Source: a virus (lineage: Duplodnaviria > Heunggongvirae > Uroviricota > Caudoviricetes). Taken from it: a DNA stretch of 19,205 nt. The position numbers were made by a program, and so were the translations under genes. Of this stretch, positions 1-18,566 are shown piece after piece (position 1 is the stretch's first letter; every line of letters starts with the position of its first letter). The notes below the pieces were generated by a model, which was not told where the DNA came from, ran no database searches, and saw nothing but the letters and a program-made list of their open reading frames with translations. The stretch lies in IMG/VR virus record IMGVR_UViG_2675903324_000004; one strand, written 5' to 3'.

Positions 1-49
1 TTTCAAAATTAAAGAAGACCGGCGTAAGGCGGCGCGGGGAGAGTAGACG

Positions 50-841
50 ATGAATAAACAATACGAACTGGTTGTTAAAGGGATAAATATTTACCCGGAT
101 AAGATTACTGTTACTGTGGCGCTGGAAACTGGTGGGTATACGTCACTGTTGTTGCCAAATGTGGTGATTGATCTTGATCGTGTTGAAGGTGCCCCGCTGG
201 AGTTTTACGAAGCTGAGGCGAAAAAGAAGGCGAAGCAGTTTTTCATGGATATTGCTGCCGGGTTATGTGAAGGGAACGAACCGTTGCCGGAAAAGCGCCT
301 CTGTTCAGAAGAGCGGTATACCATACAAATTAACAATGCATATAACACGATACAGTCAGAAAAAGATGATATCGAATCACGCATTGAAAAACTGGAGAAC
401 AGCGTCGTTGAACTGAATAAAAAACTGTCGGTGCAGATCCCTTCCGAAGGTGAAAAAAAACGCCGTGATGAGCAGTTCGCGGCGTTTTACGATTATTGCC
501 GGAAAGTGATGAGCAGAAATCTCGCAGAGTGTTTCCGTATTCAAAAAAACAGAGAGCGCTCTGCAAATAGTGAGATTCTGGATAATTTTTTAAAGGGGAC
601 GCATCTCGCCAGTGATTGTTTCATTGCTCATTCTTTTGGTGGCTTTCATGAGGCCATCAAACATGATGTTGAGAGAAGTCCAGGTATCCTCTGTTCCATT
701 CCCGTAAGCATCGAAATAGACACAAATACGATAACCGGTGAACTCGTTACCGCCGGAGTCGGTATATTCCGTCATGAGGGGAACGATGCCAAAGGTTCCT
801 TTACAAAAATCGGGCCGTTCTTTCTGAAGGTAGAGCGATAG
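50..841 (+). CDS. hypothetical protein; accessory (moron-like) gene with a charged, Lys/Glu-rich N-terminal two-thirds
   Basis: 263-codon ORF with ATG at 50 preceded by a G-rich stretch (GGGGAGAG). The first ~180 residues look coding and no competing ORF covers 50-590. The region looks AT-richer than the structural genes (by eye, not computed). The 3' ~250 nt (590-841) overlap the convergent ORF 590-1222 in the codon-aligned antisense frame, so the true 3' extent is uncertain. No family recognised. Confidence 0.5.
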   Translation: MNKQYELVVKGINIYPDKITVTVALETGGYTSLLLPNVVIDLDRVEGAPLEFYEAEAKKKAKQFFMDIAAGLCEGNEPLPEKRLCSEERYTIQINNAYNTIQSEKDDIESRIEKLENSVVELNKKLSVQIPSEGEKKRRDEQFAAFYDYCRKVMSRNLAECFRIQKNRERSANSEILDNFLKGTHLASDCFIAHSFGGFHEAIKHDVERSPGILCSIPVSIEIDTNTITGELVTAGVGIFRHEGNDAKGSFTKIGPFFLKVER

Positions 842-1222
842 TTTGTTAAGTACCCATCCGACAGCTCGCTCATTTTGGTTTATTTTCGTATCGCGAAACA
901 AAAATTCGAAGCGGCCAGATGACGCATGGGTGCAACCAAATACCGGGGCGTATTCATCAACCTTTGGTGTTCCTGAAAACATGCAGTCCGTGCTCTCGAA
1001 TGCAGATGAATTGCTGTTGATCCACTTAACAAAAGAAAAAAAGGTCTGAATCGCTTGTCTGTCTGAATATTCAACAAAATCCTCAAGGTGTGTCTCGATC
1101 AGTTCCGGGTGTTTACGAAAGTCATAATATTGACCGGGACGATATTTATGAGTGGTTGTTTTATCCCATGGTTGTGCTCTGCGTCCCTGTAAACGGAGGT
1201 CTGCCGCTGGATAGATAAGCAT
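590..1222 (-). CDS. hypothetical protein; accessory (moron-like) gene on the opposite strand to the phage late genes
   Basis: The minus-strand ORF is open 1291->590. The internal ATG at 1222-1220 has a good SD (AGGAGA, 6-nt spacer), whereas the GTG at 1291 has none, so 1222 is the preferred start (210 aa). Composition is protein-like and uniform along its length, and codon choice in the overlap (ATC, ACC, GGC common) looks more typical than the opposing frame (ATA x3, AGA, CGA). No family recognised. Confidence 0.55.
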   Translation of the reverse strand: MLIYPAADLRLQGRRAQPWDKTTTHKYRPGQYYDFRKHPELIETHLEDFVEYSDRQAIQTFFSFVKWINSNSSAFESTDCMFSGTPKVDEYAPVFGCTHASSGRFEFLFRDTKINQNERAVGWVLNKLSLYLQKERPDFCKGTFGIVPLMTEYTDSGGNEFTGYRICVYFDAYGNGTEDTWTSLNIMFDGLMKATKRMSNETITGEMRPL

Positions 1223-1352
1223 AAGTAATCTCCTGGTGGAATGTAATCCACGATCATCCGGGGAAATTAAGAACCCGCCAGTGCCCACCACTGGTGGGGT
1301 GAAGGCTTAACATATCCAGGGATTCGGAACCGATAAATCCTGATAAATATCC

Positions 1353-1886
1353 ATGAACACCAAAATCAAATACGGCCTGTCGGCTGCCGTTCTGGCGCTG
1401 ATTGCCGCAGGGGCGCCTGCGCCTGATATTCTCGACCAGTTTCTGGATGAAAAAGAAGGTAACCACACCACGGCATACCGTGATGGTGCGGGGATCTGGA
1501 CCATTTGTCGTGGTGCCACCAGGGTGGATGGCAAACCTGTCGTCCCGGGCATGAAGTTGTCGAAGAAAAAATGCGACCAGGTTAACGCCATTGAGCGTGA
1601 TAAGGCGCTGGCATGGGTGGAGAAAAACATCCGGGTGCCACTGACTGAACCCCAGAAAGCGGGGATCGCGTCATTCTGCCCGTATAACATTGGCCCCGGT
1701 AAGTGTTTCCCGTCGACGTTTTATAAACGAATTAATGCAGGCGATCGCCGGGGTGCATGCGAGGCGATTCGCTGGTGGATTAAAGACGGTGGCAGAGACT
1801 GCCGTATCCGCTCAAATAACTGTTATGGTCAGGTATCCCGTCGTGACCAGGAGAGCGCGCTGGCGTGCTGGGGTATCGACAGATAA
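1353..1886 (+). CDS. R: SAR endolysin (T4-type lysozyme, glycoside hydrolase family 24)
   Basis: 177 aa. The N-terminus has a weakly hydrophobic Gly/Ala-rich signal-anchor-release segment (YGLSAAVLALIAAGAPAP), followed by the Glu-8aa-Asp-5aa-Thr catalytic spacing (EGNHTTAYRDGAGIWT) typical of T4-lysozyme-like enzymes. It resembles P21 R21 and Stx-phage R-type endolysins from memory. Confidence 0.9.
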   Translation: MNTKIKYGLSAAVLALIAAGAPAPDILDQFLDEKEGNHTTAYRDGAGIWTICRGATRVDGKPVVPGMKLSKKKCDQVNAIERDKALAWVEKNIRVPLTEPQKAGIASFCPYNIGPGKCFPSTFYKRINAGDRRGACEAIRWWIKDGGRDCRIRSNNCYGQVSRRDQESALACWGIDR

Positions 1887-3377: not shown

Positions 3378-3520
3378 ATGTCCGCAGTAAACGCGCATCT
3401 CACGCGCATATTAACGAGAGCCTTTCAGTAAGCGGGCCTGAGAATTGCCGTTATAGGTGGCGACCTCTCTCGGGCGGCTTTTCTGTGAGACAGGCTCACT
3501 TTCTAAAAGGTAAAGACGCC

Positions 3521-4018
3521 ATGAAAGCAATCACGCTTTTTAATACACCGATCCGTGTTGATGAATCAGGAATGATCTGCCTCACTGATATGTGGAAAGC
3601 CAGTGGTAAAAGTGAATCTGAATCTCCGTACCACTACCTGCGAAACAAGCAGACCAAAGAGTTCTTAGCCGAGCTGGAGAAAAACCACGAATCTGTGGTT
3701 TTTACTGAGCGCGGTGTACACGGTGGAACATATGGCGGGAAGTTTGTTGCTTATGATTATGCAGCATGGCTAACCCCCGGATTTAAATATGCAGCCTATA
3801 AAGTCCTGGATGACTACTTCACCGGAGAACTTCAGCATCGCAACAGCTTAAGTGCGCAGCTCAATATGAAGTGTCATGAGTTTGATCAGAAAAAAGATAT
3901 GGCGAGCTTCTGTGGGCAAGGTCTGGCGGCATGGCGCTATACGAAACCAGTGTTGGTCGCTGAGATTAACTCCCTGGCTAACCAGCTGCAGATAACGATC
4001 CCCGGGCTTCCGGGATGA
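3521..4018 (+). CDS. KilA-N domain-containing protein
   Basis: N-terminal region MKAITLFNTPIRVDESGMICLTDMWKASGK…GGKFVAYDYAAWLTPGFKYAAYKVLDDYF resembles KilA-N (APSES-like) DNA-binding domains common in prophage accessory regions. ATG 3521 is preferred over the GTG at 3485 by homology, but the start is uncertain. Confidence 0.7.
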   Translation: MKAITLFNTPIRVDESGMICLTDMWKASGKSESESPYHYLRNKQTKEFLAELEKNHESVVFTERGVHGGTYGGKFVAYDYAAWLTPGFKYAAYKVLDDYFTGELQHRNSLSAQLNMKCHEFDQKKDMASFCGQGLAAWRYTKPVLVAEINSLANQLQITIPGLPG

Positions 4019-5959: not shown

Positions 5960-7859
5960 TTCTGCAGGAGCGATAGCAACCGGCCTCCTTGCGCTAAAAA
6001 TTCCTGTCCCTCTGACGACAGTTCAGTGGGCAGATCGACATTATTACCTTCCGAAAGAGTCATCTTACACCCCGGGGCGGTGGGAAACACTGCCGTTTCA
6101 GGTTGCCATCATGAACAGCATGGGGAATGACCGGATCCGCACTGTTAATCTGATTAAATCTGCCCGTGTTGGTTATACAAAGATGTTGCTGGGAGTGGAG
6201 GCTTATTTTATTGAGCATAAATCACGCAACAGCCTTCTTTTCCAGCCCACGGATTCTGCTGCTGAAGATTTTATGAAATCTCATGTGGAACCCACGATCA
6301 GGGATGTGCCGGTTTTACTCGATCTTGCACCGTGGTTTGGGCGTAAACATCGTGATAATACCCTCACGCTGAAACGTTTTTCATCGGGCGTGGGCTTCTG
6401 GTGCCTGGGCGGGGCTGCCGCTAAAAACTACCGTGAAAAATCCGTGGACGTGGTCTGCTATGACGAACTTTCCTCGTTCGAACCGGATGTCGAAAAAGAG
6501 GGTTCGCCAACCCTGCTTGGGGATAAACGTATTGAGGGCTCTGTATGGCCCAAATCCATTCGCGGCTCGACGCCTAAAATCAAAGGCACCTGCCAGATCG
6601 AAAAAGCGGCCAACGAGTCGGCGCATTTCATGCGTTTTTATGTGCCCTGCCCACACTGTGGGGAGGCGCAGTATCTGAAATTTGGCGATGAATCCACGCC
6701 TTTTGGCCTTAAATGGGAGAAGGACAGCCCCGAAAGCGTTTTCTACCTCTGTGAACATCATGGCTGCGTGATCCATCAGTCTGAGCTTGACCAGAGCAAC
6801 GGGCGGTGGATCTGTGAAAACACGGGGATGTGGACCCGTGACGGTCTGACGTTTTTCAGCGCCGCGGATAATGAAATTCCGCCGCCACGCTCCATCACGT
6901 TCCACATCTGGACGGCGTACAGTCCGTTCACCACCTGGGTACAGATAGTCTATGACTGGCTGGATGCACTGAAAGATCCCAACGGCGTGAAAACCTTTGT
7001 GAACACCACGCTGGGCGAGACCTGGGAAGAGGCCGTGGGCGAAAAACTCGATCACCAGGTACTGATGGATAAGGTTGTGCGTTACACGGCGGCGGTGCCT
7101 GCCCGGGTGGTTTATCTGACGGCGGGCATTGACTCGCAGCGAAACCGTTTTGAGATGTATGTCTGGGGATGGGCTCCGGGAGAGGAAGCCTTTCTGGTGG
7201 ATAAAATCATCATTATGGGGCGTCCCGATGAGGAAGAGACGCTGTTACGTGTGGATGCGGCGATCAACAAAAAATACCGCCATGCAGACGGAACCGAAAT
7301 GACCATTTCCCGGGTCTGCTGGGACACCGGGGGGATCGATGGCGAAATCGTTTATCAGCGGTCAAAAAAACACGGTGTTTTCCGGGTGCTGCCGGTAAAA
7401 GGCGCATCTGTCTATGGCAAGCCGGTGATCACCATGCCAAAAACCCGCAATCAGCGGGGCGTGTATCTGTGTGAAGTGGGGACGGACACCGCAAAAGAAA
7501 TTCTCTATGCCCGTATGAAAGCCGAGCCCACGCCTGCGGATGAAGCCACGTCGTATGCCATCCGTTTTCCTGATGATCCGGAGATTTTTTCGCAGACAGA
7601 GGCGCAGCAACTGGTGGCGGAAGAGCTGGTGGAGAAGTGGGAAAAAGGAAAGATGCGTCTGTTGTGGGATAACAAAAAGCGGCGTAACGAAGCGCTGGAC
7701 TGCCTGGTGTATGCCTACGCGGCATTACGTGTGTCCGTGCAACGCTGGCAGCTTGATCTGGCTGTACTGGCAAAATCCCGGGAAGAAGAGACGACCCGGC
7801 CAACCCTGAAAGAACTGGCAGCGAAGCTGTCCGGAGGAGTGAATGGTTACAGTCGCTGA
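5931..7859 (+). CDS. A: terminase large subunit (gpA homolog; ATPase/endonuclease)
   Basis: Collinear similarity to lambda gpA over its whole length (e.g. [53 protein letters not shown]). ATG 5931 (SD AGGTGG) gives a ~29-nt overlap with the Nu1 3' end as in lambda; ATG 5889 and 5913 are alternative starts in the same frame. Confidence 0.95.
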
Positions 7860-8049
7860 ACTGCAGGCGCTGCGTCAGGCGCGCCTTGATTTATTAACCG
7901 GTAAACGGGTGGTGTCTGTCCAGAAAGATGGTCGCAGAATTGAATATACGGCGGCTTCTCTGGATGAGCTTAACCGTGCGATCAATGATGCGGAGTCGGT
8001 ACTGGGGACAACCCGCCGTCGCCGTCGTCCGCTGGGAGTGAGGTTATGA
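7843..8049 (+). CDS. W: head-tail joining / head stabilisation protein (gpW homolog)
   Basis: 68 aa with SD GGAGGAG. Similar to lambda W (…[21 protein letters not shown]…). Overlaps the A stop and the B start. Confidence 0.9.
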   Translation: MVTVAELQALRQARLDLLTGKRVVSVQKDGRRIEYTAASLDELNRAINDAESVLGTTRRRRRPLGVRL

Positions 8050-9638
8050 AACGAACGCCTGTCCTGATTGATGTGAACGGCGTTCCGCTTCGGGAGAGCC
8101 TCAGCTACCACGGGGGCGGTGCAGGATTTGGCGGGCAAATGGCGGAGTGGTTGCCACCGGCGCAGAGTGCCGATGCAGCCCTGCTGCCTGCGTTGCGTCT
8201 GGGGAATGCCCGGGCAGATGATCTGGTGCGCAATAACGGGATAGCGGCTAATGCGGTGGCCCTGCATAAGGATCATATTGTCGGGCATATGTTTCTGATC
8301 AGCTACCGTCCGAACTGGCGCTGGCTGGGGATGCGGGAGACTGCGGCAAAAAGTTTTGTCGATGAGGTGGAGGCGGCCTGGTCGGAATACGCCGAAGGGA
8401 TGTTTGGCGAGATCGACGTGGAAGGGAAACGCACGTTTACGGAATTTATCCGTGAAGGTGTGGGCGTTCATGCGTTTAACGGCGAAATCTTTGTGCAGCC
8501 GGTCTGGGATACGGAGAGCACGCAACTGTTTCGTACGCGTTTTAAAGCCGTGAGTCCGAAACGGGTGGACACGCCAGGACACGGTATGGGGAACCGTTTT
8601 CTGCGGGCCGGTGTGGAGGTCGATCGATATGGTCGTGCCGTTGCGTACCATATCTGTGAGGATGATTTTCCGTTCTCCGGGAGTGGACGATGGGAACGGA
8701 TCCCGCGTGAACTTCCCACCGGGCGTCCGGCCATGCTGCATATTTTCGAGCCGGTGGAGGACGGGCAGACCCGTGGGGCCAATCAGTTTTACAGCGTAAT
8801 GGAACGGCTGAAGATGCTCGATTCCCTGCAGGCAACACAGCTTCAGTCGGCCATAGTGAAGGCGATGTATGCAGCGACGATTGAAAGTGACCTTGATACC
8901 GAAAAGGCCTTTGAATATATCGCCGGTGCGCCGCAGGGGCAGAAGGATAATCCGCTTATTAATATTCTGGATAAGTTCTCCACCTGGTATGACACGAATA
9001 GCGTGACGCTGGGCGGTGTCAAAATTCCGCACCTTTTCCCCGGTGATGATCTGAAACTTCAGACCGCGCAGGATTCAGACAATGGATTTTCGGCGCTTGA
9101 ACAGGCGCTGCTGCGGTATATCGCCGCCGGTCTTGGCGTTTCCTACGAACAGTTGTCCCGTGATTACTCGAAGGTCAGTTATTCAAGTGCCCGCGCATCC
9201 GCCAATGAGTCGTGGCGCTATTTTATGGGGCGGCGAAAATTTATTGCGTCCCGGCTGGCCACGCAGATGTTTTCCTGCTGGCTGGAAGAGGCACTTCTTC
9301 GGGGGATTATTCGTCCGCCACGGGCACGTTTTGATTTTTATCAGGCGCGATCAGCCTGGTCACGGGCTGAGTGGATTGGAGCCGGAAGAATGGCCATTGA
9401 CGGGCTCAAGGAGGTTCAGGAATCAGTGATGCGCATTGAGGCCGGACTGAGCACGTATGAGAAAGAGCTGGCGCTGATGGGCGAGGATTATCAGGACATT
9501 TTCCGCCAGCAGGTCAGGGAATCTGCAGAGCGGGAAAAAGCCGGACTCTCACATCCGGTGTGGATAGCGCAGGCGTATCAGCAGCAGATAGCGGAGAGTC
9601 GCAGGCCGGAAGAGGAGACAACACCACGTGAGACGTAA
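8046..9638 (+). CDS. B: portal protein (gpB homolog)
   Basis: 530 aa, collinear with lambda gpB (533 aa), e.g. HIFEPVEDGQTRGANQFYSVMERLKMLDSLQATQLQSAIVKAMYAATIES. Confidence 0.95.
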   Translation: MKRTPVLIDVNGVPLRESLSYHGGGAGFGGQMAEWLPPAQSADAALLPALRLGNARADDLVRNNGIAANAVALHKDHIVGHMFLISYRPNWRWLGMRETAAKSFVDEVEAAWSEYAEGMFGEIDVEGKRTFTEFIREGVGVHAFNGEIFVQPVWDTESTQLFRTRFKAVSPKRVDTPGHGMGNRFLRAGVEVDRYGRAVAYHICEDDFPFSGSGRWERIPRELPTGRPAMLHIFEPVEDGQTRGANQFYSVMERLKMLDSLQATQLQSAIVKAMYAATIESDLDTEKAFEYIAGAPQGQKDNPLINILDKFSTWYDTNSVTLGGVKIPHLFPGDDLKLQTAQDSDNGFSALEQALLRYIAAGLGVSYEQLSRDYSKVSYSSARASANESWRYFMGRRKFIASRLATQMFSCWLEEALLRGIIRPPRARFDFYQARSAWSRAEWIGAGRMAIDGLKEVQESVMRIEAGLSTYEKELALMGEDYQDIFRQQVRESAEREKAGLSHPVWIAQAYQQQIAESRRPEEETTPRET

Positions 9639-11133
9639 TCTTTCACACATTATTGCCGCAGCATTCAATGAACCGCTGCTTCTGGAGCCCGCCTATGCGC
9701 GGGTTTTCTTTTGCGCGCTCGGGCGCGAGATGGGGGCAGCAAGTCTTTCGGTACCACAACAGCAGGTACAGCTTGATGCTCCCGGAATGCTGGCTGAAAC
9801 GGACGAGTACATGGCCGGAGGTAAACGACCGGCCCGTGTTTACCGGGTGGTGAACGGTATTGCTGTACTGCCGGTGACCGGCACGCTGGTGCACCGGCTG
9901 GGCGGTATGCGGCCATTTTCCGGAATGACAGGCTATGACGGCATTGTCGCCTGTCTTCAGCAGGCAATGGCAGATAGCCAGGTGCGGGGCGTACTGCTGG
10001 ACATTGACAGTCCTGGCGGGCAGGCCGCCGGCGCGTTTGACTGCGCTGACATGATTTACCGCCTCCGTCAGCAGAAGCCGGTCTGGGCACTGTGCAATGA
10101 CACGGCCTGTTCTGCAGCCATGCTGCTGGCGTCGGCCTGCTCCCGACGGCTGGTTACCCAGACATCCCGTATCGGCTCCATTGGCGTGATGATGAGCCAT
10201 GTCAGCTATGCCGGTCATCTGGCGCAGGCCGGGGTGGATATCACGCTGATTTATGCCGGGGCGCACAAGGTGGATGGCAATCAGTTTGAAGCTTTACCGG
10301 CAGAGGTGCGTCAGGACATGCAGCAGCGGGTTGATGCGGCGCACCGGATGTTTGCCGAAAAAGTGGCGATGTATACGGGGCTGTCTGTGGAAGCTGTCAC
10401 GGGGACAGAGGCTGCCGTTTTTGAAGGTCAGTCCGCTATTAAGGCCGGACTGGCGGATGAATTAATCAATGCGTCGGATGCCATCAGCGTGATGGCTGCG
10501 GCGCTGAACACTCATGATACAGGAGGCACTATGCCGCAATTAACTGCAACGGAAGCTGCCGCGCAGGAGAACCAGCGAGTGATGGGGATCCTGACGTGTC
10601 AGGAAGCGAAAGGACGTGAACAGCTTGCCACGATGCTGGCAGGACAACAGGGCATGAGCATTGAACAGGCCCGGGCGATTCTGGCCGCGGCGGCACCACA
10701 GCAGCCGGTGGCATCCGCGCAGAGTGAAGCCGATCGCATTATGGCGTGTGAAGAAGCGAAAGGTCGTGAACAACTGGCGGCAACGCTGGCGGCGATGCCG
10801 GAGATGACGGTGGAAAAAGCCCGCCCGATCCTCGCTGCCTCACCGCAGGCGAATGCCGGGCCCTCACTTCGTGATCAGATCATGGCCCTGGATGAGGCAA
10901 AAGGGGCAGAAGCGCAGGCTGAAAAACTGGCGGCCTGCCCGGGAATGACCGTGGAGAACGCCCGGGCTGTGCTGGCTGCGGGATCAGGTAAGGCCGAACC
11001 GGTCTCTGCATCCACAACCGCCCTGTTTGAACATTTCATGGCGAACCATTCACCGGCAGCAGTGCAGGGTGGCGTGCCACAGACGTCAGCAGACGGTGAT
11101 GCGGACGTGAAAATGCTCATGGCCATGCCATGA
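9628..11133 (+). CDS. C: head maturation protease / minor capsid protein (gpC homolog, S49/ClpP-like)
   Basis: GTG start at 9628 overlapping the B stop. N-terminal ~300 aa similar to lambda gpC (AFNEPLLLEPAYARVFFCAL…, NGIAVLPVTGTLV…, RLVTQTSRIGSIGVMM). The C-terminal third contains the scaffold-like repeats. Confidence 0.9.
   Translation: MRRNLSHIIAAAFNEPLLLEPAYARVFFCALGREMGAASLSVPQQQVQLDAPGMLAETDEYMAGGKRPARVYRVVNGIAVLPVTGTLVHRLGGMRPFSGMTGYDGIVACLQQAMADSQVRGVLLDIDSPGGQAAGAFDCADMIYRLRQQKPVWALCNDTACSAAMLLASACSRRLVTQTSRIGSIGVMMSHVSYAGHLAQAGVDITLIYAGAHKVDGNQFEALPAEVRQDMQQRVDAAHRMFAEKVAMYTGLSVEAVTGTEAAVFEGQSAIKAGLADELINASDAISVMAAALNTHDTGGTMPQLTATEAAAQENQRVMGILTCQEAKGREQLATMLAGQQGMSIEQARAILAAAAPQQPVASAQSEADRIMACEEAKGREQLAATLAAMPEMTVEKARPILAASPQANAGPSLRDQIMALDEAKGAEAQAEKLAACPGMTVENARAVLAAGSGKAEPVSASTTALFEHFMANHSPAAVQGGVPQTSADGDADVKMLMAMP
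10531..11133 (+). CDS. Nu3: scaffolding protein (gpNu3-like), nested in-frame within the 3' part of C
   Basis: In-frame internal ATG at 10531 preceded by a consensus SD (AGGAGG at 10521-10526). A nested in-frame scaffold gene is the lambda C/Nu3 arrangement. The exact start is inferred, not proven. Confidence 0.55.
   Translation: MPQLTATEAAAQENQRVMGILTCQEAKGREQLATMLAGQQGMSIEQARAILAAAAPQQPVASAQSEADRIMACEEAKGREQLAATLAAMPEMTVEKARPILAASPQANAGPSLRDQIMALDEAKGAEAQAEKLAACPGMTVENARAVLAAGSGKAEPVSASTTALFEHFMANHSPAAVQGGVPQTSADGDADVKMLMAMP
10576..11013 (+). repeat. three diverged in-frame tandem repeats (~44-53 codons each) within C/Nu3
   Basis: Protein-level repeats: RVMGILTCQEAKGREQLATMLAGQQGMSIEQARAILAAAAPQ… / RIMACEEAKGREQLAATLAAMPEMTVEKARPILAASPQ… / QIMALDEAKGAEAQAEKLAACPGMTVENARAVLAAGSG…. 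Approximate unit boundaries are 10576, 10735 and 10879. Confidence 0.7.
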
Positions 11134-11169
11134 AGCCAGTGCTGACCATCAATATGAGGTTTTAACAAA

Positions 11170-11517
11170 ATGGTGACGAAAACCATCACTGAACAACGTG
11201 CGGAAGTACGTATTTTTGCCGGTAATGATCCGGCTCATACCGCCACAGGCAGCAGCGGGATTTCTCAGGCAACACCGGCACTGACCCCCCTGATGCTGGA
11301 TGAAGCCAGCGGGAAACTGGTGGTCTGGGACGGACAGAAAGCCGGTAGTGCGGTTGGCATACTGGTACTGCCGCTTGAAGGCACAGAGACGGTGCTGACC
11401 TATTACAAGTCGGGGACCTTTGCGACGGAGGCAATCCGCTGGCCTGACAGTGTGGATGAACACAAAAAGGCAAATGCCTTTGCCGGCACAGCCCTGAGTC
11501 ACGCGGCGCTGCCGTAA
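11170..11517 (+). CDS. D: head decoration protein (gpD homolog)
   Basis: 115 aa, similar to lambda gpD (…DPAHTATGSSG…TPLMLD…KLVVWDG…AVGILV…YKSGTF…AFAGTA…). Confidence 0.9.
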   Translation: MVTKTITEQRAEVRIFAGNDPAHTATGSSGISQATPALTPLMLDEASGKLVVWDGQKAGSAVGILVLPLEGTETVLTYYKSGTFATEAIRWPDSVDEHKKANAFAGTALSHAALP

Positions 11518-11574
11518 CACGTTATCAGGCCGCCGCGTTGGCCTGACTGATTTCTGAATGAAAGGAACTGATTT

Positions 11575-12603
11575 ATGGGATTGTTTACGACCCGCCAGTT
11601 ACTCGGTTATACCGAACAAAAAGTGAAATTTCGTGCGCTGTTTCTGGAACTGTTTTTCCGCCGTACGGTGAATTTCCACACCGAAGAGGTGATGCTGGAC
11701 AAAATTACCGGAAAAACGCCGGTGGCGGCCTATGTCTCCCCGATCGTTGAAGGAAAAGTGCTTCGCCATCGCGGTGGTGAAACCCGCGTGTTACGTCCGG
11801 GCTACGTCAAGCCCAAACACGAATTTAATTACCAGCAGGCGGTTGAGCGCCTTCCTGGTGAAGATCCGGCTCAGCTGAACGACCCGGCCTACCGTCGTCT
11901 GCGTATCATTACCGATAACCTCAAACAGGAAGAGCACGCCATTGTCCAGGTGGAAGAAATGCAGGCGGTGAATGCCGTGCTGTATGGCAAATACACCATG
12001 GAAGGGGATCAGTTTGATACTGTCGAGGTGGATTTCGGGCGCTCTGAAGGAAATAACATTGAGCAGGCTGACGGTAAAAAATGGTCTGAGCAGGACCGTG
12101 ATACGTTTGATCCGACGCATGATATTGACCTCTACTGCGATCAGGCCAGCGGCCTTGTGAATATCGCCATTATGGACGGTACGGTCTGGCGTCTGCTGAA
12201 TGGCTTTAAGCTGTTCCGCGAAAAACTGGATACCCGTCGCGGCTCAAATTCACAACTCGAAACGGCAGTGAAAGATCTGGGCGCAGTGGTGTCCTTCAAG
12301 GGGTATTACGGCGATCTGGCCATTGTGGTGGCGAAAACGTCTTATGTGGCAGAGGACGGTACCGAAAAACGTTATCTGCCGGAGGGCATGCTGGTGCTGG
12401 GGAATACGGCGGCAGAGGGGATTCGTTGCTATGGTGCCATTAAGGATGCACAGGCGTTGTCTGAAGGAGTGGTGGCTTCTTCCCGTTACCCGAAACACTG
12501 GCTGACCGTGGGCGATCCGTCCTGTGAATTCACCATGACGCAGTCCGCTCCGCTGATGGTGCTGCCGGATCCGGATGAGTTTGTGGTGGTACAGGTGAAA
12601 TAA
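11575..12603 (+). CDS. E: major capsid protein (gpE homolog)
   Basis: 342 aa with SD AAGGA. Collinear with lambda gpE (341 aa), e.g. PGYVKPKHE, RRGSNSQLETAVKDLG, FTMTQSAPLMVLPDPDEFV. Confidence 0.95.
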   Translation: MGLFTTRQLLGYTEQKVKFRALFLELFFRRTVNFHTEEVMLDKITGKTPVAAYVSPIVEGKVLRHRGGETRVLRPGYVKPKHEFNYQQAVERLPGEDPAQLNDPAYRRLRIITDNLKQEEHAIVQVEEMQAVNAVLYGKYTMEGDQFDTVEVDFGRSEGNNIEQADGKKWSEQDRDTFDPTHDIDLYCDQASGLVNIAIMDGTVWRLLNGFKLFREKLDTRRGSNSQLETAVKDLGAVVSFKGYYGDLAIVVAKTSYVAEDGTEKRYLPEGMLVLGNTAAEGIRCYGAIKDAQALSEGVVASSRYPKHWLTVGDPSCEFTMTQSAPLMVLPDPDEFVVVQVK

Positions 12604-12610
12604 TCCGTGA

Positions 12611-12640
12611 GCGGGGGCGAAATGCCCCCGTGTCTTTTTT
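12611..12640 (+). terminator. intrinsic terminator/attenuator immediately after the major capsid gene
   Basis: Stem GCGGGGGC (12611-12618) / loop GAAAT / GCCCCCGT (12624-12631), then a T-tract (12634-12640). The next gene's SD AGGAGG follows at 12644-12649. Confidence 0.7.
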
Positions 12641-12654
12641 CACAGGAGGCTGAG

Positions 12655-13038
12655 ATGGCAACAAAAGAAGAAAATCTGAATCGTCTTCGTCAACTGGCTG
12701 GCCTGCTGGGGCGCGAGGCGGATATGTCGGGGAGTGCTGCGGATATTGCTCAACGTGTGTCTGAGTGGGAAGAGGAGCTTGCTGTTTCCCCGGAGGGCAT
12801 TATGCACTCTGATGAGAGCGGGGCTGATCAAAATCACACAGACGATGGTGAGCAGTTGAACAACACGGATGCTCCGGATGATGTTAAAGCCGTCCGGGTA
12901 CGGAAGTGCCTGCAAGTAATGGGGTATTGCCCGGAGACAGGTCGTCCCGTTGAGCTGGCGTTACGGGGGATGCGTGTTCTGGTGCCATCATCACTGGCAA
13001 CGGCCATGATACAGCACGGAACGGCTGAATATGCGTGA
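12655..13038 (+). CDS. FI: DNA packaging / head assembly protein (gpFI-like)
   Basis: ATG 12655 with a consensus SD (AGGAGG, 5-nt spacer); the upstream GTG at 12607 would span the terminator. Position between E and FII, an acidic central linker and overall size match lambda FI. Sequence similarity to lambda FI is weaker than for the neighbouring genes. Confidence 0.7.
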   Translation: MATKEENLNRLRQLAGLLGREADMSGSAADIAQRVSEWEEELAVSPEGIMHSDESGADQNHTDDGEQLNNTDAPDDVKAVRVRKCLQVMGYCPETGRPVELALRGMRVLVPSSLATAMIQHGTAEYA

Positions 13039-13384
13039 TTTTCAGAATGCCTTTGATGCTGCCCTCGCCGGGGTAGACAGTACGATCGTTGAAGTGATGG
13101 GGCTCTGTGCGCAGTTCACCTCGGGGGCACAGTGTGGCAGCGAAGTTCAGGGGGTTTTTGACGATCCGGAGTCGCTGGGGTTTGCCGGTGGCGGGGTCCG
13201 TATTGAAGGAAGCAGCCCGTCATTATTTGTGCGGACGGATACGGTTCGTGCCGTGCGGCGTGGTGACACGCTGACCATTAATGGTGAGATATTCTGGGTG
13301 GATCGTGTTTCTCCGGATGACGGGGGCAGCTGTTATCTCTGGCTCAACCGTGGTCAACCACCCGCAGTTAACCGGCGACGATAA
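13031..13384 (+). CDS. FII: head-tail connector protein (gpFII homolog)
   Basis: 117 aa, similar to lambda FII (…GVFDDPE…GVRIEGSSPSLFVRTD…RRGDTLTI…FWVDRVSPDDGGSC.LWL.RG.PPAVNRRR). Confidence 0.9.
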   Translation: MRDFQNAFDAALAGVDSTIVEVMGLCAQFTSGAQCGSEVQGVFDDPESLGFAGGGVRIEGSSPSLFVRTDTVRAVRRGDTLTINGEIFWVDRVSPDDGGSCYLWLNRGQPPAVNRRR

Positions 13385-13399
13385 ACGCAGGGTGAAATT

Positions 13400-13975
13400 A
13401 TGGCGATAAAAGGGCTTGATCAGGCGATTGACAATCTGAGCCGGGTTCGTAAAAACGCCATTCCGGCGGCTTCAGCAATGGCCATTAACCGCGTGGCCAC
13501 AACGGCGATTAATCAGTCTTCATCACAGGTTGCCCGGGAGACAAAGGTTCGCCGGAAACTGGTTAAGGAACGGTCCAGACTGAAACGGGCGACGGTCAGA
13601 AATCCGAATGCCAGAATTATCGTTAACCGCGGTGATCTCCCTGTGATTAAGCTGGGGATCAGGATGCTGGGGCGTCGCCCGAACAGCATACTTAAAGCCG
13701 GTCAGCATCGTTATCAGCGGGCATTTATCCAGCGATTAAATAATGGGCGCTGGCATGTTATGCAACGTCTTCCCCAGGCCAGATATGAGGAGGGCAATGA
13801 CGACAAGGGAAGGAAAAAGCGTAATCGCCTTCCCATTCAGGTGGTGAAAATCCCGATGGCGGCCCCACTGAAACAGGCATTTGATGAGAATGTTGACCGT
13901 ATCCGGCGTGAACGCCTGCCTAAAGAACTGGCATACGCGCTGAAACAACAACTGAGGATTGCGATAAAACGATGA
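13400..13975 (+). CDS. Z: tail completion protein (gpZ homolog)
   Basis: 191 aa, similar to lambda Z (MAIKGLEQA…ARETKVRRKLVKER.RLKRATV.NP.ARI.VNRGDLPVIKLG…VVKIPMA…RIRRERLPKEL). Confidence 0.9.
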   Translation: MAIKGLDQAIDNLSRVRKNAIPAASAMAINRVATTAINQSSSQVARETKVRRKLVKERSRLKRATVRNPNARIIVNRGDLPVIKLGIRMLGRRPNSILKAGQHRYQRAFIQRLNNGRWHVMQRLPQARYEEGNDDKGRKKRNRLPIQVVKIPMAAPLKQAFDENVDRIRRERLPKELAYALKQQLRIAIKR

Positions 13976-14367
13976 AACACACTGACATTCGTGCCGCAGT
14001 GCTGGATGCACTCGAGCAGCATGAACACGGGGCGACGCTGTTTGATGGTCGCCCCGTTGTTTTTGACGAAGAGGATTTTCCTGCGATCGCGGTTTATCTG
14101 ACGGATGCAGAGTATACCGGTGAAGAGCTGGATGCAGATACCTGGCGGGCCACACTGCATATTGAGGTGTTTTTACCGGCACAGGTACCTGATTCGGAGC
14201 TCGATCAGTGGATGGAAAGCCGGATTTATCCGGCGATGACTGCGATCCCTGCACTGGCAGGACTGATTACCACGATGGTTACGCAGGGCTATGAGTATCG
14301 TCGTGATGACGATATGGCGTTATGGAGCTCTGCAGATCTGACTTATTCCATTACATACGAGATGTGA
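13972..14367 (+). CDS. U: tail terminator protein (gpU homolog)
   Basis: 131 aa, near-collinear with lambda U ([15 protein letters not shown]…[24 protein letters not shown]…DLTY.ITYEM). ATGA overlap with Z. Confidence 0.95.
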
Positions 14368-14374
14368 GGACGAT

Positions 14375-15127
14375 ATGGCAACACCAAATCCCCTGGAGCC
14401 AGTAAAAGGTGCCGGTACCACTCTGTGGGTTTACAACGGCAAGGGTGATGCTTATGCAAACCCGTTGTCAGACGCTGACTGGCAGCGACTGGCTAAGGTG
14501 AAGGATCTGACGCCGGGCGAGATGACGGCAGAATCCTACGATGATAACTACCTGGATGATGAAGACGCAGACTGGACCGCGACCGGGCAGGGGCAGAAAT
14601 CTGCAGGTGATACCAGTTTTACGCTGGCCTGGAAACCGGGAGAGGAAGGTCAGAAAGGGCTTATAGGCTGGTTTGAAAGCGGCGATGTCCGGGCCTATAA
14701 AATCCGTTTTCCGAATGGCACGGTGGATGTGTTTCGTGGCTGGGTCAGCAGTATCGGTAAGGCCGTGACGGCGAAAGAAGTGATCACCCGCACGGTGAAA
14801 GTCACTAACGTGGGTAAACCTTCTGTAGCGGAAGAACGCAGCAAAATTACGCCGGTCAGTGCGATTAAGGTGACGCCTACATCCGGTACGGTGGCAAAAG
14901 GGAAAACAACCACCCTGACGGTTTCTTTTGAGCCGGAAAGTGCAACCGACAAGACGTTCAGAGCGGTTTCCGCCGATCCGTCGAAAGCCACCATTAGTGT
15001 GAAAGATATGACAATTACGGTAAACGGCGTGGCGACAGGTAAGGTGCAGATCCCTGTGGTGAGCGGAAATGGTCAGTTCGCCGCAGTGGCTGAAGTCACC
15101 GTTACTGAAGCGGGCGCTGCAGGGTAA
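14375..15127 (+). CDS. V: major tail tube protein (gpV homolog) with C-terminal Ig-like domain
   Basis: 250 aa, highly similar to lambda V ([10 protein letters not shown]…[55 protein letters not shown]…). Confidence 0.95.
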
Positions 15128-15140
15128 ACGGAGGTAATAC

Positions 15141-15572
15141 ATGTTTCTGAAAACAGAACAATTTGAATATAACGGTGTGTCTGTCACGCTTTCCGAATTG
15201 TCTGCGCTGCAGCGTATCGAGCATCTTGCCCTTCTGAAACGGCGTGCAGAACAGGCAGAATCCAGCGGCAACCTGCAGGTAAGCGTGGAAGATCTCGTCA
15301 GAACCGGCGCGTTTCTGGTGGCGATGTCCCTGTGGCATAACCATCCACAGAAAACGCAGTCACCGTCAATGAATGAGGACGTGATGAAGATAGAGCAGGA
15401 AGTGCTCACCACCTGGCCTGCCGATGCCATTGCCCGGGCGGAAGACGTGGTGTTGTGCCTGTCCGGGATGATCGAAGCTGTTCGTCCGGATACTGATATT
15501 ACTGAAGTGGCGAAAAATAACACGCTGACTGATGATGATTTTTCTGCGGGAAAGTCTTCGACGGCGAGCTGA
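15141..15572 (+). CDS. G: tail assembly chaperone (gpG homolog)
   Basis: 143 aa with SD GGAGG. Similar to lambda G (MFLKTE.FE.NGV.VTLSELSALQRIEHLAL.KR.AEQAES…), ending …AGKSSTAS just after the slippery site. Confidence 0.9.
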   Translation: MFLKTEQFEYNGVSVTLSELSALQRIEHLALLKRRAEQAESSGNLQVSVEDLVRTGAFLVAMSLWHNHPQKTQSPSMNEDVMKIEQEVLTTWPADAIARAEDVVLCLSGMIEAVRPDTDITEVAKNNTLTDDDFSAGKSSTAS

Positions 15573-16012
15573 ACTTTGCCCTCAGACTGGCGCGTGAGAT
15601 GGGGAGACCCGACTGGCGCGCCATGCTTGCCGGGATGACATCCACCGAATATGCCGACTGGCGACGTTTTTACCGCACGCATTATTTTCACGATACCCAG
15701 CTGGATATGCATTTTTCCGGGCTGACGTACGCCGTACTCAGCCTGTTTTTATACGATCCGGATATGCATCCCTCGGATTTCAGTCTGCTTGTCCCCCGGC
15801 GTGAGGAAGCGCAGACGGAGAGGCCGGATGAGGAAGACATGCTGATGCAGAAAGCGGCAGGACTTGCCGGAGGCGTCCGGTTCGGCGGGGAGGGCGGGGG
15901 CGATATTTCACCTTCTGCGGATGTGGTGGATGTCAGCGAGGATGATGTCGCATTAATGATGGCTTCTGCGGGGATTTCCGGAGGTGTGAGATATGTCCCA
16001 GCCGGTTGGTGA
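15141..16012 (+). CDS. G-T: tail assembly chaperone fusion protein G-T, produced by -1 frameshift at 15548-15554
   Basis: G frame to the slippery site, then the -1 frame (track ORF 15599-16012 plus its upstream open extension). The T-region sequence is similar to lambda gpT (GRPDWRAMLAGM.STEYADW.RFY.THYFHD…LDMHFSGLTY.VLSLF). Confidence 0.8.
15548..15554 (+). promoter_or_regulatory. programmed -1 ribosomal frameshift slippery heptamer G GGA AAG (G -> G-T fusion)
   Basis: The heptamer GGGAAAG sits in the correct phase of the G frame (GGA = codon 15549-15551). The -1 frame is open from here to 16012 and encodes …GKVFDGELNFALRLAREMGRPDW…, matching the lambda gpT region. Confidence 0.85.
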
Positions 16013-18566
16013 TCTTGTTATTGACCTGAGTCTGGATGCGGTCCGTTTCGATGAGCAGATGACCCGCGTAAGGCGTCATTTTTCAGGACTGGAGACTGAC
16101 GCCAGAAAAACCGCCAGTGCTGTTGAGCAGGGGCTGAGCCGTCAGGCGCTGGCTGCACAAAAAGCCGGGATGTCCGTCGGGCAGTATAAAGCGGCCATGC
16201 GAACCCTGCCTGCACAGTTTACGGATATCGCCACGCAGCTTGCCGGTGGTCAGAATCCCTGGCTGATCCTGCTGCAACAGGGCGGTCAGGTGAAGGACTC
16301 CTTCGGCGGGATGATCCCCATGTTCAGGGGGCTCGCCGGTGCGATCACCCTGCCGATGGTCGGGGTCACCTCGCTGGCGGTGGCGACAGGTGCGCTGGTG
16401 TACGCCTGGTACCAGGGAGATTCCACGCTTTCAGCGTTTAATAAAACCCTGGTTCTTTCCGGTAATCAGTCCGGACTGACTGCCGATCGTATGCTGACTC
16501 TCTCAAGAGCCGGGCAGGCAGCAGGGCTGACGTTTAACCAGGCGAGAGAGTCACTGGCAGCCCTGGTGAATGCCGGTGTGCGTGGTGGTGAACAGTTTGA
16601 TGCCATCAACCAGAGTGTCGCGCGTTTTGCGTCTGCATCCGGTGTGGAGGTGGATAAAGTCGCTGAAGCCTTCGGGAAGCTGACCACTGACCCGACGTCG
16701 GGACTGATGGCGATGGCGCGCCAGTTCCGTAACGTGACGGCAGAGCAGATTGCGTATGTTGCACAGCTGCAGCGTTCCGGAGACGAGGCCGGGGCATTGC
16801 AGGCGGCGAACGATATCGCCACGAAAGGCTTTGATGAGCAGACCCGTCGCCTGAAAGAAAACATGGGAACACTGGAGACCTGGGCGGATAAAACAGGGAA
16901 GGCATTCAAATCGATGTGGGATGCCATTCTGGATATCGGTCGTCCTGAATCCTCAGCGGATATGCTCGCCAGTGCGCAGAAGGCATTTGATGAGGCGGAT
17001 AAAAAATGGCAGTGGTACCAGAGCCGGAGCCAGCGCCGGGGAAAGACCTCCTCTTTTCGTGCGAACCTTCAGGGGGCATGGGATGACCGGGAAAATGCCC
17101 GTCTGGGTCTGGCAGCGGCCACGCTGCAGTCGGATATGGAAAAAGCCGGTGAACTGGCGGCAAGGGACCGGGCTGAGCGTTAGGCGTCACAGCTGAAGTA
17201 TACCGGAGAGGCGCAGAAGGCGTATGAGCGCCTGCAGACGCCGCTGGATAAATATACCGCCCGTCAGAAAGAGCTGAATAAGGCCCTGAAAGACGGAAAA
17301 ATCCTGCAGGCGGATTACAACACGCTGATGGCGTCGGCAAAAAAGGATTATGAATCGACGCTGAAAAAGCCGTCAGGTGTGAAGGTGTCTGCCGGTGAGC
17401 GCCAGGAAGACCGGGCGCATGCAGCCATGCTGGCGCTTGAAACCGAGCTCAGGACGCTGGAAAAACACAGCGGTGTGAATGAGAAAATCAGCCAGCAGCG
17501 CCGGGATTTATGGGAAGCGGAAAATCAGTATGTGGTCCTGAAAGAGGCCGCCACGAAACGGCAGTTATCTGAGCAGGAAAAATCCCTGCTGGCTCATGAG
17601 AAAGAAACGCTGGAGTACAAACGCCAGCTGGCTGAGCTGGGTGACAAGGTTGAATACCAGAAACGGCTGAATGAGCTGGCACAGCAGGCGGCACGGTTTG
17701 AAGAGCAGCAGAGCGCGAAGCAGGCCGCCATCAGCGCAAAAGCCCGTGGTCTCACTGACCGTCAGGCGCAGCGGGAGTCTGAAGAGCAGCGTCTTCGTGA
17801 CGTGTATGGCGATAATCCGCAGGCGCTGGCCCGGGTCACCGGGGCACTGAAACAGACATGGGCGGATGAAGACATGCTGCGCGGTGACTGGCTGGCCGGT
17901 CTGAAGTCCGGCTGGGGTGAGTGGACGGAAAGTGCGACGGACAGTTTTTCGCAGGTTAAAAGTGCTGCCACGCAGACCTTTGACGGTATTGCACAGAATA
18001 TGACGGCGATGCTGACCGGTGCAGAGGCAGACTGGCGGGGATTCACCCGTTCGGTGCTGTCCATGATGACAGAAATCCTGCTTAAACAGGCCATGGTGGG
18101 CATTGTCGGGCGTATCGGCAGCGCCATTGGTGGTGCTTTCGGTGGTGGGGCGTCTGCCTCCACGGGGACGGCCATTGAGGCTGCGGCGGCGAACTTTCAT
18201 TTTGCGACCGGCGGATTTACGGGCACGGGCGGCAAATATGAGCCTGCGGGGATAGTTCACCGCGGGGAGTTTGTCTTCACGAAGGAGGCAACCAGCCGGA
18301 TAGGCGTGGGGAATCTTTACCGTCTGATGCGCGGCTATGCGGAAGGGGGTTATGTGGGTGGTGCCGGAAGTCCGGCGCAGATGCGGCGGGCGGAAGGTAT
18401 TAATTTTAATCAGAACAATCACGTGGTGATTCAGAACGACGGTATCAACGGACAGGCGGGGCCGCAGCTGATGAAGGCGGTGTATGACATGGCCCGCAAG
18501 GGGGCGCAGGATGAACTCCGGCTGCAGTTGCGTGATGGCGGTATGTTATCAGGGAGCGGGCGATGA
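15993..18566 (+). pseudogene. H: tail tape measure protein (gpH homolog) interrupted by a single in-frame TAG at 17181-17183
   Basis: Track ORFs 15993-17183 and 17328-18566 are in the same frame (both coordinates ≡ 0 mod 3), and the 144 nt between them are open in that frame. The translation is collinear with lambda gpH across the junction (…LKYTGEAQKAYERLQTPLDKYTARQKELNKALKDGKILQADYNTLMASAKKDYESTLKK). The only interruption is the TAG at 17181-17183. ATG 15993 has SD GGAGG. Confidence 0.85.

Follow-up and report, generated by a model that had tools for sequence, protein, structure and literature searches.

Introduction

In the recently described prophage systems Tha/Ith, Tai/Ati and Tab/aTab, a reversed defence gene expressed in the lysogen is combined with an antagonist expressed late or during the lytic cycle (PMC11087260, PMC11364771, PMC10884400). 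In Staphylococcus aureus phage 80alpha, Tha and Ith belong to opposed transcription units that make up a noncontiguous operon, and Tha, located in the lysogeny module, is a HEPN RNase (PMC11087260). Tai of phi80, named for tail assembly inhibition, is expressed in the lysogen and encoded by a reversed gene of ~200 aa that interrupts the Q-dependent late operon close to the genes for lysis and packaging; beside it, on the late strand, lies the small counter-defence gene ati, whose overlap with the 5' end of tai is only 20 nt (PMC11364771). In Pseudomonas phage JBD26, Tab is encoded on the minus strand under its own promoter, and translation of aTab, on the late strand, is linked to that of the late gene before it (PMC10884400).

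Genes that overlap antisense over a much longer stretch have been proposed in EHEC, for example ano; these are long antisense ORFs at the same locus that annotation pipelines discard, and the evidence for them comes mainly from RNA-seq and Ribo-seq of individual strains (PMC5960689, PMC9927249).

Here, we analyze a locus in a 19,205-nt stretch of DNA from a virus of the Caudoviricetes (IMG/VR record IMGVR_UViG_2675903324_000004; hereafter, the window), in which two convergent ORFs overlap immediately upstream of the endolysin gene. As with tai, the minus-strand gene is reversed within a noncontiguous operon, here between S and R, and its relatives likewise lie in tail operons and in the Q–holin region.

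Results

Layout of the Overlap and Base Composition

The features of the locus are given in Table 1. Both ORFs were confirmed in the ORF list, and their overlap occupies positions 590–841 (252 nt), which agrees with the ~250-nt codon-aligned antisense overlap of the original prediction. The frames are exactly codon-aligned because both codon sets begin at positions congruent to 2 mod 3.

The GC content was calculated as 0.435 for positions 50–546, 0.445 for 547–1276, 0.551 for the endolysin gene and 0.561 for 6001–19205. The predicted lower GC of the region relative to the phage structural genes was thus obtained (about 0.44 vs. 0.56), but the low value is not specific to the insert, since the DUF1327 gene of the backbone has an equal GC content, and it does not mark the insertion boundaries. 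Two further details required correction: the holin, which lambdoid phages usually carry at this place, does not lie within 50–1222, its 3' end being at 1–46, and the Lys/Glu-rich stretch of the plus product is central (about aa 55–150) rather than N-terminal.

Table 1. Features of the locus (positions in the window).
Feature	Position	Strand	Description	Basis
Class II holin gene (S), 3' end	1..46	+		RefSeq annotation of identical copy NZ_CP015244; also annotated in PhiR12 phages
263-aa fused ORF	50..841	+	DUF1327 portion and antisense-encoded module	ORF list
DUF1327-family portion	50..550	+	about aa 1–167: domain aa 1–96, then Lys/Glu-rich segment	Pfam, PHROG
Putative asORF module	551..841	+	nested antisense in 3' third of 210-aa gene	homology, stop avoidance, synonymous divergence
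Inserted cassette (~730 bp)	547..1276		relative to related lysis regions; left edge 499–551, varying with the relative compared	
Terminator-like hairpin and T-run	549..564	-	25 nt 3' of the stop codon of the 210-aa gene	consensus scan
210-aa gene of uncharacterised family	590..1222	-	opposes late transcription	homologues, profile search, dN/dS, AF2
Shine-Dalgarno AGGAG	1230..1234	-	7 nt upstream of ATG at 1222	read from sequence
Endolysin (phage lysozyme, rrrQ-like)	1353..1886	+	immediately downstream, context only	Pfam PF00959, E = 7.3e-25; RefSeq annotation

The Minus-Strand Gene

Full-length homologues of the 210-aa protein, with 53–65% identity, are present in Salmonella and in metagenomes, and a profile search with the family gave 251 clusters (at 50% identity). 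The dN/dS of the sense frame is 0.1–0.33 where dS can be estimated, synonymous sites being saturated otherwise, and the AF2 model has a pLDDT of 95.8 and a pTM of 0.92. A shadow ORF on this strand was rejected given how large the family is, the dN/dS and the predicted structure; the minus ORF is a real gene of a widespread unnamed protein family, although RefSeq leaves it unannotated. A longer version of 233 aa, with a GTG start at 1291, was rejected because the homologues start at MLIYPA.

The gene has its own Shine-Dalgarno (SD) motif and faces late transcription in the manner of a moron, as had been predicted. Promoter scans detected no sigma-70-consensus promoter upstream of it, either in the window or in three relatives. 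The terminator-like hairpin behind it is weak evidence, since the number of hairpins in the region does not exceed the shuffle expectation; in one relative (L048), a hairpin is found at the equivalent relative position.

It should be noted that neither the 210-aa protein nor the asORF has a match in Pfam, PHROGs, PADLOC or NCBIfam, so that the earlier statement that both proteins are unrecognised holds for the minus family, which has no model in these collections, and fails for the first ~168 residues of the plus protein, which are DUF1327. Neither the plus nor the minus protein matches any defence model of PADLOC-DB 2.0 at E ≤ 1. The AlphaFold model of the 210-aa protein has no convincing structural neighbour, and the family, when compared by sequence with solved structures, gave only a chance-level septin motif (E = 0.4). 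Distant family members lie among housekeeping genes, indicating that the family is not intrinsically one of phage defence; scans of the genome and viral collections returned no match to the DNA of these distant members.

The Plus-Strand ORF

The plus ORF starts 4 nt past the end of the holin gene. Because it shares its strand with the lysis genes S and R, its translation presumably draws on the late lysis transcript. Pfam PF07041 (DUF1327) matches aa 1–96 of the product with 116.3 bits (gathering cutoff 25, E = 7.5e-34), and aa 1–168 cover positions 1–182 of the 183 of PHROG_2091 (E = 2.4e-85), i.e., this part corresponds end to end to the DUF1327/YdfR-type proteins of lambdoid lysis regions.

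The position between holin and endolysin is also that of DUF1327 members, but these have about 100–180 aa. Typical ones stop at about 169 aa, as in PhiR12_1, whereas the present ORF of 263 aa runs 95 residues further into the antisense module, and these residues have no family match in Pfam or PHROG. The DNA homology of the DUF1327 part ends at 499 in comparison with the DUF1327 gene of PhiR12_1 and at 546 in comparison with another relative. As judged from these matches, the plus ORF is a DUF1327 gene fused to a separate conserved module and not a single novel gene. Deposited records of Stx1a phages label it a "hypothetical protein", and PGAP annotates only 50–298, as a DUF1327 pseudogene.

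Cassette, Mobility and Distribution

Positions 500–1276 of the window replace 303 bp of PhiR12_1, and in many E. coli prophages the match begins no earlier than 1276/1277 or else extends no further than 546. The absence of the cassette from close relatives such as PhiR12_1 supports the suggestion that accessory cargo lies beside the lysis genes here. The cassette was found at an identity of at least 99% in 132 of 5426 complete E. coli genomes; the carriers are largely Shiga-toxin-producing strains, and Stx1a/Stx2a-converting phages also carry it beside their lysis genes.

Between lineages, DNA homology is limited to the 210-aa CDS and about 12 nt, and the surroundings vary. The cassette occupies the S–R slot in the window and the Q–holin region, beside Kiwa, in a P22-like Salmonella prophage; elsewhere it lies between tail genes I/K and J or adjoins the tape-measure gene. 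A further Salmonella homologue, L002, belongs to a prophage remnant and adjoins sodC. In every phage context seen, the 210-aa gene is opposite to the late genes.

We conclude with moderate confidence that positions 547–1276 form a mobile moron cassette coding on both strands; this grading refers to our best explanation overall, in which the anatomy shown is weighted above the inferred function.

The Antisense Module across Lineages

In the window, the asORF, which lies opposite the final ~82 codons of the 210-aa gene, is in frame with DUF1327 and has neither an ATG nor an SD of its own. In about ten diverged phage lineages, the homologous antisense stretch is a separate ORF of 89–107 aa with its own ATG, and homology to a stand-alone asORF of 104 aa begins at 551. 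This ATG always lies 3–14 codons beyond the sense stop in the related phage lineages, in most cases with an SD-like motif at 4–9 nt amid otherwise unrelated sequence; the asORF of Salmonella L006 starts without an SD, and in L051 the start overlaps the stop of the preceding gene as ATGA. The position of the asORF stop is conserved as well.

Downstream of the holin, the frame leading into the module is kept in four plus-strand architectures (263, 161, 178 and 104 aa). It is broken in the remnant L002 and in two chromosomal, non-phage members of the family; for the chromosomal comparison, three distant loci were examined, one of which (73% GC) was uninformative. A comparison of the asORF with solved structures by sequence gave an antibody heavy chain as the best match (E = 0.0026), with no matched stretch passing the threshold by itself, and was treated as chance.

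In the window, DUF1327 codons 1–~167 stand in place of the first ~8 codons of the asORF, including its start, and the module is therefore predicted to be the C-terminal domain of the 263-aa fusion, read from the S–R lysis transcript. Since the asORF has no start or SD of its own here, its translation in the window requires synthesis of the fusion. The 132 copies in E. coli are at least 99% identical, and selection on the fusion itself is therefore unmeasurable.

Tests for Coding in the Antisense Frame

The sense codons TTA, CTA and TCA create stops in the antisense frame. In 10 lineages they make up 67 of the 181 Leu/Ser codons in sense codons 1–127 and none of the 132 in sense codons 129–210, although these pooled counts overstate independence because the lineages are phylogenetically related. 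Shuffling of synonymous Leu/Ser codons within each gene gave per-lineage values from P = 0.00005 to P = 0.25. In the window alone the open antisense run is only marginally unusual (P = 0.053); the significance of the open frame comes from the comparison with relatives.

The synonymous divergence (pS) of the sense gene decreases from 0.84 outside to 0.68 inside the overlap overall, and the closer groups show values of 0.84 outside against 0.51 inside and of 0.75 against 0.37, while the non-synonymous divergence (pN) stays flat where pS falls. Between the window and a relative of 88% identity, the sense pS is 0.16 in the overlap and 0.53 next to it. The trio that includes L002, with its broken frame, shows no drop of pS in the overlap.

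Stop avoidance, synonymous constraint and conserved starts thus favor a genuine long overlap over a shadow ORF, the two readings offered by the original prediction, and its two convergent, overlapping coding units are favored by the comparative evidence across lineages. A known protein ending before the overlap had been named as counting against them: DUF1327 does stop there, and this alone would speak for a shadow tail, but the relatives argue for both frames. On these comparisons, both frames are, in all likelihood, real coding sequences.

Discussion

We propose that the lysogen would produce the 210-aa protein as an effector that benefits the host, most likely through anti-phage exclusion. 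On induction, Q-dependent late transcription would run antisense through the 210-aa gene and damp its expression, and the late transcript would also supply the asORF module, which may neutralise the effector, leaving the prophage unharmed by its own cargo. Such a pairing of a lysogen-expressed effector with a late-expressed antagonist is a tentative suggestion, and we infer the defence or host-interaction role from the architecture only.

In a more general form, the locus may represent a widespread, previously unrecognised prophage module in which the effector gene carries its late-expressed antagonist antisense in its last ~250 nt, one segment yielding a protein of the lysogen, an antagonist after induction and a switch by antisense transcription. 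Within a protein family that is otherwise chromosomal, the antisense frame would have been overprinted solely in the phage-borne clade and, in Stx-type phages, captured as a C-terminal domain of DUF1327. This picture as a whole is likewise put forward as possible rather than probable.

Somewhat less probable, but the best of the alternatives, is that both frames are coding and have unrelated functions, the plus module being a late or lysis-associated domain (a DUF1327 partner, or a virion or lysis accessory) and the minus gene an independent lysogenic-conversion gene, overprinted by chance. Two relatives retain the module, intact and in frame, although their 210-aa gene has lost its N-terminal 80–100 codons, which is a poor fit to a pure antagonist role unless the deletions are recent; the repeated fusion to DUF1327-type sequence straight after the holin and the Salmonella homologue adjoining sodC in a prophage remnant are also in keeping with separate roles. 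However, in the lineages sampled the module only ever overlaps a gene of the 210-aa family, complete or reduced to a remnant, a search of 5.8 billion proteins gave no free-standing homologue, and in tail operons the module is not beside lysis genes.

It is unlikely that only the 210-aa gene is functional, i.e., that the insertion removed the DUF1327 stop and the plus frame is open to 841 by chance. The absence of stop-creating codons from the overlap across lineages (0/132 vs. 67/181), the conserved ATG outside the sense CDS, mostly with an SD-like motif, and the fall in synonymous divergence in the overlap only all contradict a shadow ORF, as do the preservation of the frame in four fusion or stand-alone architectures and its breakage exactly where the late operon is absent. 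These observations outweigh the facts that the recognisable plus-ORF family stops at about aa 168, that the PGAP annotation has DUF1327 as a truncated pseudogene at this locus, that a stop-poor codon-aligned antisense frame needs only the avoidance of TTA, CTA and TCA, and that the plus tail of the window has no start or SD of its own and a window-only P of 0.053.

Two tightly linked, antisense-overlapping genes that move together as a unit might also suggest an addiction pair of the toxin–antitoxin type, with a toxic 210-aa protein and the antisense module or its RNA as the antidote that stabilises the prophage. We consider this very improbable: the putative antidote is on the late-gene strand, with no visible promoter of its own in most phage contexts, and would therefore not be expressed in the lysogen, the very state that requires an antitoxin; furthermore, intact sense genes without the asORF occur in a prophage remnant and in chromosomes, and neither protein matches a TA family.

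Least probable of all is that the constraint on the 3' third of the minus gene stems not from a second protein but from an element of the RNA or DNA, such as the target of an antisense RNA, a structured 3' region, or a signal for transcription interference or termination. An embedded RNA element would equally reduce synonymous divergence, and convergent transcription is to be expected at this locus. However, neither the 252-nt overlap (z = +0.68) nor the neighbouring control stretch (z = +0.28) folds more stably than its shuffles, positions 1–2200 have no Rfam match, and frame-specific stop avoidance, the conserved ATG with its SD-like motif, the conserved stop position and the in-frame fusions would be left unexplained.

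Protein genes of bacteria and phages that overlap antisense over a long stretch are a contested class, of which very few members have gained acceptance. The comparative support for the asORF is unusually clean: stops are avoided, synonymous sites are constrained, starts are conserved, and the frame is lost where the late operon is missing. The locus also marks an annotation gap, since RefSeq annotates neither strand of the cassette properly and the phage records inspected give the plus ORF only, and it adds a new family of 210-aa proteins with a confident predicted structure and no Pfam, PHROG, PADLOC or NCBIfam entry. If a lysogen-expressed effector and its late-expressed antagonist are indeed encoded here, they would count as a new family among the prophage systems that combine defence with self-immunity, a recently described class, and as the most compact coupling of two such genes yet.

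Comparison with Known Systems

The classical lambdoid morons, such as bor and lom, are autonomous accessory genes of the late region that code on a single strand. Like them, the cassette is missing from close relatives, and it has an SD of its own as well as a terminator-like hairpin; it differs from them in coding on both strands and in lacking a recognisable promoter.

Membership in the Tai/Ati system was rejected: TaiEcA (phi80 orf63) and the profile of 103 family sequences gave an hhalign probability of 0.14% and a BLASTP E of 3.2, and AtiEcA (phi80 orf64) and the asORF gave an hhalign probability of 1.5% over 11 columns. The geometry is also different, since, unlike that of ati and tai, the overlap here covers the 3' third of the 210-aa gene. 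TerI, described as a small Listeria protein, and GiPD474 of Salmonella Gifsy, described as containing an ATPase domain, were set aside on the strength of these descriptions.

The likeness to Tha/Ith is one of architecture: a small antisense overlapping ORF, which may encode an inhibitor, is present here and conserved. Unlike in Tha, no HEPN or any other domain was detected in the 210-aa protein, and unlike Ith, the small ORF is encoded on the strand of the late genes, overlaps its partner CDS by about 250 nt and, in the window, is fused to another protein.

The ATGA start/stop overlap of L051 is comparable in layout with the arrangement of Tab–aTab; in JBD26, however, tab and aTab are adjacent between terminase genes and not nested as here (PMC10884400). 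Finally, unlike that for ano of EHEC, the case presented here for an antisense overlapping gene is built on comparison across lineages down to 37% protein identity.

Structure and Composition of the Overlapping Locus

The plus and minus frames listed in the table are in exact codon alignment on opposing strands, with a common stretch of 252 nt (590–841). The gene order of the window, S (holin), the overlapping pair, R (endolysin), an antirepressor-like insert, Rz, terminase, and head and tail genes, is that of a lambda-like prophage. An identical copy is found in E. coli O91 RM7190, where a nanS-p-type esterase, DUF1378, DUF826, and a class II holin lie upstream; this is the late-region layout of Stx phages, and the same sequence is present in Stx1a- and Stx2a-converting phages.

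Coordinates of the features of the overlapping pair
Feature	Position	Strand	Description
Plus ORF	50–841	+	263 aa (ORF list)
Minus ORF	590–1222	−	210 aa, ATG at 1222 (ORF list)
AGGAG	1230–1234	−	7 nt upstream of the minus-ORF ATG
Terminator-like hairpin	564–549	−	3′ of the minus gene

The low GC content noted in the original prediction is real (0.435 for 50–546 and 0.445 for 547–1276, versus 0.551 in the endolysin gene and 0.561 across head and tail genes) but is not specific to the insert, since the backbone DUF1327 gene is equally low. Residues 1–96 of the plus product belong to DUF1327 (PF07041, E = 7.5e-34), residues 1–168 match PHROG_2091 (profile positions 1–182 of 183), and ordinary DUF1327 relatives such as that of PhiR12_1 end at about 169 aa; thus, the recognisable family stops about 10 codons short of the overlap. 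For the O91 RM7190 copy, PGAP annotates only 50–298, as a truncated DUF1327 pseudogene, and leaves 299–1352 empty. The cassette carries no feature in every full-length RefSeq match viewed, and in the phage records inspected the plus ORF is annotated and the minus gene is not.

Elsewhere in the window, a P22_AR_N/ORF11CD3 antirepressor-like gene between endolysin and Rz (2161–2733) and a second ORF after Rz (3485–4018), which by eye we take to be KilA-N/Bro-like, add to the accessory insertions of the lysis region, a part in which the window and the O91 RM7190 copy are not alike. An in-frame stop interrupts tape-measure gene H at 17181–17183 (between ..RDRAER and ASQLKY..), leaving ORFs 15993–17183 and 17328–18566 in one frame; the prophage may be tail-defective unless this stop is read through.

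The Minus-Strand Gene and Its Family

The minus ORF proved to be a real gene. Full-length homologues with 65, 64, 54, and 53% identity occur in Salmonella and metagenomes, and profile searching against 1.84 billion representatives yielded 251 clusters at E ≤ 1e-3, almost all of them single-domain proteins of about 200–215 aa. The dN/dS ratio is 0.1–0.33 in the sense frame where dS could be estimated (synonymous sites are saturated in most pairs) and 0.55–1.0 in the antisense frame. The AlphaFold model, built on a 103-sequence alignment (pLDDT 95.8, pTM 0.92), predicts an alpha/beta fold with long helices packed on an antiparallel sheet. R15, P18, P39, I42, L46, E47, D48, F61, N69, E76, D79, R104, R110, N115, G163, and G174 are near-invariant and would be compatible with a role in binding or catalysis.

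No Pfam domain was found in any of the 103 members, and searches of PHROGs, PADLOC, and NCBIfam gave no match. Residues ~12–54, with the motif R-x-x-P-W ... D-F ... L-I ... L-E-D, weakly match the C-terminal part of septin G-domain chains (E = 0.4), probably by chance. Promoter scans found no consensus promoter for the gene. On non-phage contigs, more distant members (about 30% identity) have housekeeping genes as neighbours; the phage copies are therefore a single captured clade within a wider family.

Mobility of the Cassette

Compared with PhiR12_1, window 500–1276 stands in place of 303 bp; other prophages cease to match the window after 546 or begin to match it only at 1276/1277, and between lineages DNA similarity extends no further than the minus CDS and some 12 nt. 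On these comparisons, 547–1276 is a mobile cassette. Homologues lie between Q and the holin gene, beside Kiwa, in a P22-like Salmonella prophage; next to sodC in a Salmonella prophage remnant; and, in many IMG/VR phages, between tail genes I/K and J or beside the tape-measure gene. In all phage contexts the gene opposes the late-gene strand.

In the P22-like prophage (L006), Kiwa (KwaA/KwaB, 11618–13257) lies a few kb from the 219-aa homologue and shares its strand. The DUF1327–R slot of PhiR12 phages, at the position of window ~500–1276, holds a different reversed 86-aa ORF annotated as "DUF1823" (L010 2958–3218, L070 507–767), which shares about 50 nt with the 3′ end of DUF1327. This site seems to be a hot spot for morons in reverse orientation. 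At window 1284–1298, upstream of the endolysin and a few bases into the backbone resuming at 1277, is a 15-nt palindrome, CCCACCACTGGTGGG. In three lineages a late-strand GC-rich hairpin with a T-run follows the cassette directly before J (L037 5873–5890, L048 5843–5859, L057 3857–3873) and may keep non-antiterminated antisense transcripts out of J.

Evidence for Coding in the Antisense Frame

The original prediction left open whether the overlap is genuine or contains a shadow ORF; stop avoidance, start signals, and synonymous constraint favour the former. Stops in the codon-aligned antisense frame come solely from the sense codons TTA, CTA, and TCA. In ten lineages with 48–64% nucleotide identity to the window copy, which are not phylogenetically independent, these account for 67 of the 181 Leu/Ser codons within sense codons 1–127 versus 0 of the 132 in codons 129–210. 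Most lineages keep the antisense stop facing sense codon 127/128; in the P0008 group it lies at codon 114 or 121. Within-gene synonymous shuffling, a conservative test on the same non-independent lineages, gave P = 0.00005–0.25 for individual lineages and P = 0.053 for the window copy.

An ATG is found in every phage lineage 3–14 codons past the sense stop, outside the sense CDS, preceded in most at 4–9 nt by GGAG, GAGG, AGGAGG, GGAGG, or AGGA and in a few by weak motifs only; these SD-like motifs are set in sequence otherwise unrelated between lineages. In one lineage (L051) the ATG overlaps the stop of the preceding late gene as ATGA.

The synonymous divergence of the sense gene falls only in the overlap, from 0.84 to 0.68 over all lineages, and from 0.84 to 0.51 and from 0.75 to 0.37 in closer groups, with no change in non-synonymous divergence. 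An 88%-identical relative differs from the window at 7.7% of nucleotides within the overlap and at 17.8% alongside (sense pS 0.16 versus 0.53). The trio of the window, the sodC remnant, and the P22-like prophage has no synonymous drop. The antisense frame is broken in the sodC remnant, by three stops, and also in both informative chromosomal family members. An RNA element as the source of the constraint is made unlikely by unremarkable structure in the overlap (z = +0.68; control stretch, +0.28) and the lack of an Rfam match there.

The resulting ORF (asORF) encodes 89–107 aa, ends in ...GPFYLK(I/V)xR, and is in every case oriented with the late genes. Pfam and PHROG gave no match to it and PDB no meaningful one, and a search of 5.8 billion proteins found it at such loci only. 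We consider it probable, judging from sequence, that both frames are real coding sequences.

Fusion Architectures of the Module

Homology to the 104-aa stand-alone asORF (MGHNNDKSRVRLVNSEALDKFLKG...) starts at window 551. Here the first ~8 asORF codons and any start signal are replaced in frame by DUF1327 codons 1–~167, and the module has no start codon of its own. Directly 3′ of the holin gene are found a 161-aa in-frame form (Stx2a phages, ~1000 contigs, minus gene intact), a 178-aa in-frame form with a different linker and 82% identity, and likewise the 104-aa form. Retention of the frame in four architectures argues for translation of the module.

Two relatives have lost 200–350 nt from the 5′ part of the 210-aa gene and keep the plus module intact; the sodC remnant is the reverse case, a 210-aa gene without an intact asORF. 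Each gene can therefore occur without the other, in copies that look decaying. The deletions (window 978–1326 in L065–L067 and 981–1182 in L063–L064) have near-identical left ends (977/980), pointing either to one ancestral break common to both or to a site prone to recombination.

Taken together, the sequence comparisons indicate that the overlapping pair is genuine and of greater interest than an artefact of read-through: the locus joins a protein family that is widespread and unannotated to a second, antisense frame with good support, beside the lysis genes of Shiga-toxin phages.

Comparison with Known Systems

By analogy with prophage defence and self-immunity pairs, the lysogen would make the 210-aa protein as an effector, probably of phage exclusion; late transcription across the minus gene would hinder its expression, and the asORF module, fused to DUF1327 in the window, would neutralise the effector in the prophage's own lytic cycle. 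We offer this effector/antagonist function as a tentative proposal. Sequence and profile comparison ruled out membership of the Tai or Ati families. The layout, in which a Q-dependent operon contains a reversed gene and the late strand carries its small partner, is the "noncontiguous operon" of such pairs, shared with Tha/Ith, whose inhibitor is described as "a small overlapping antisense gene" (PMC11087260), Tai/Ati of phi80 (PMC11364771), and Tab/aTab (PMC10884400).
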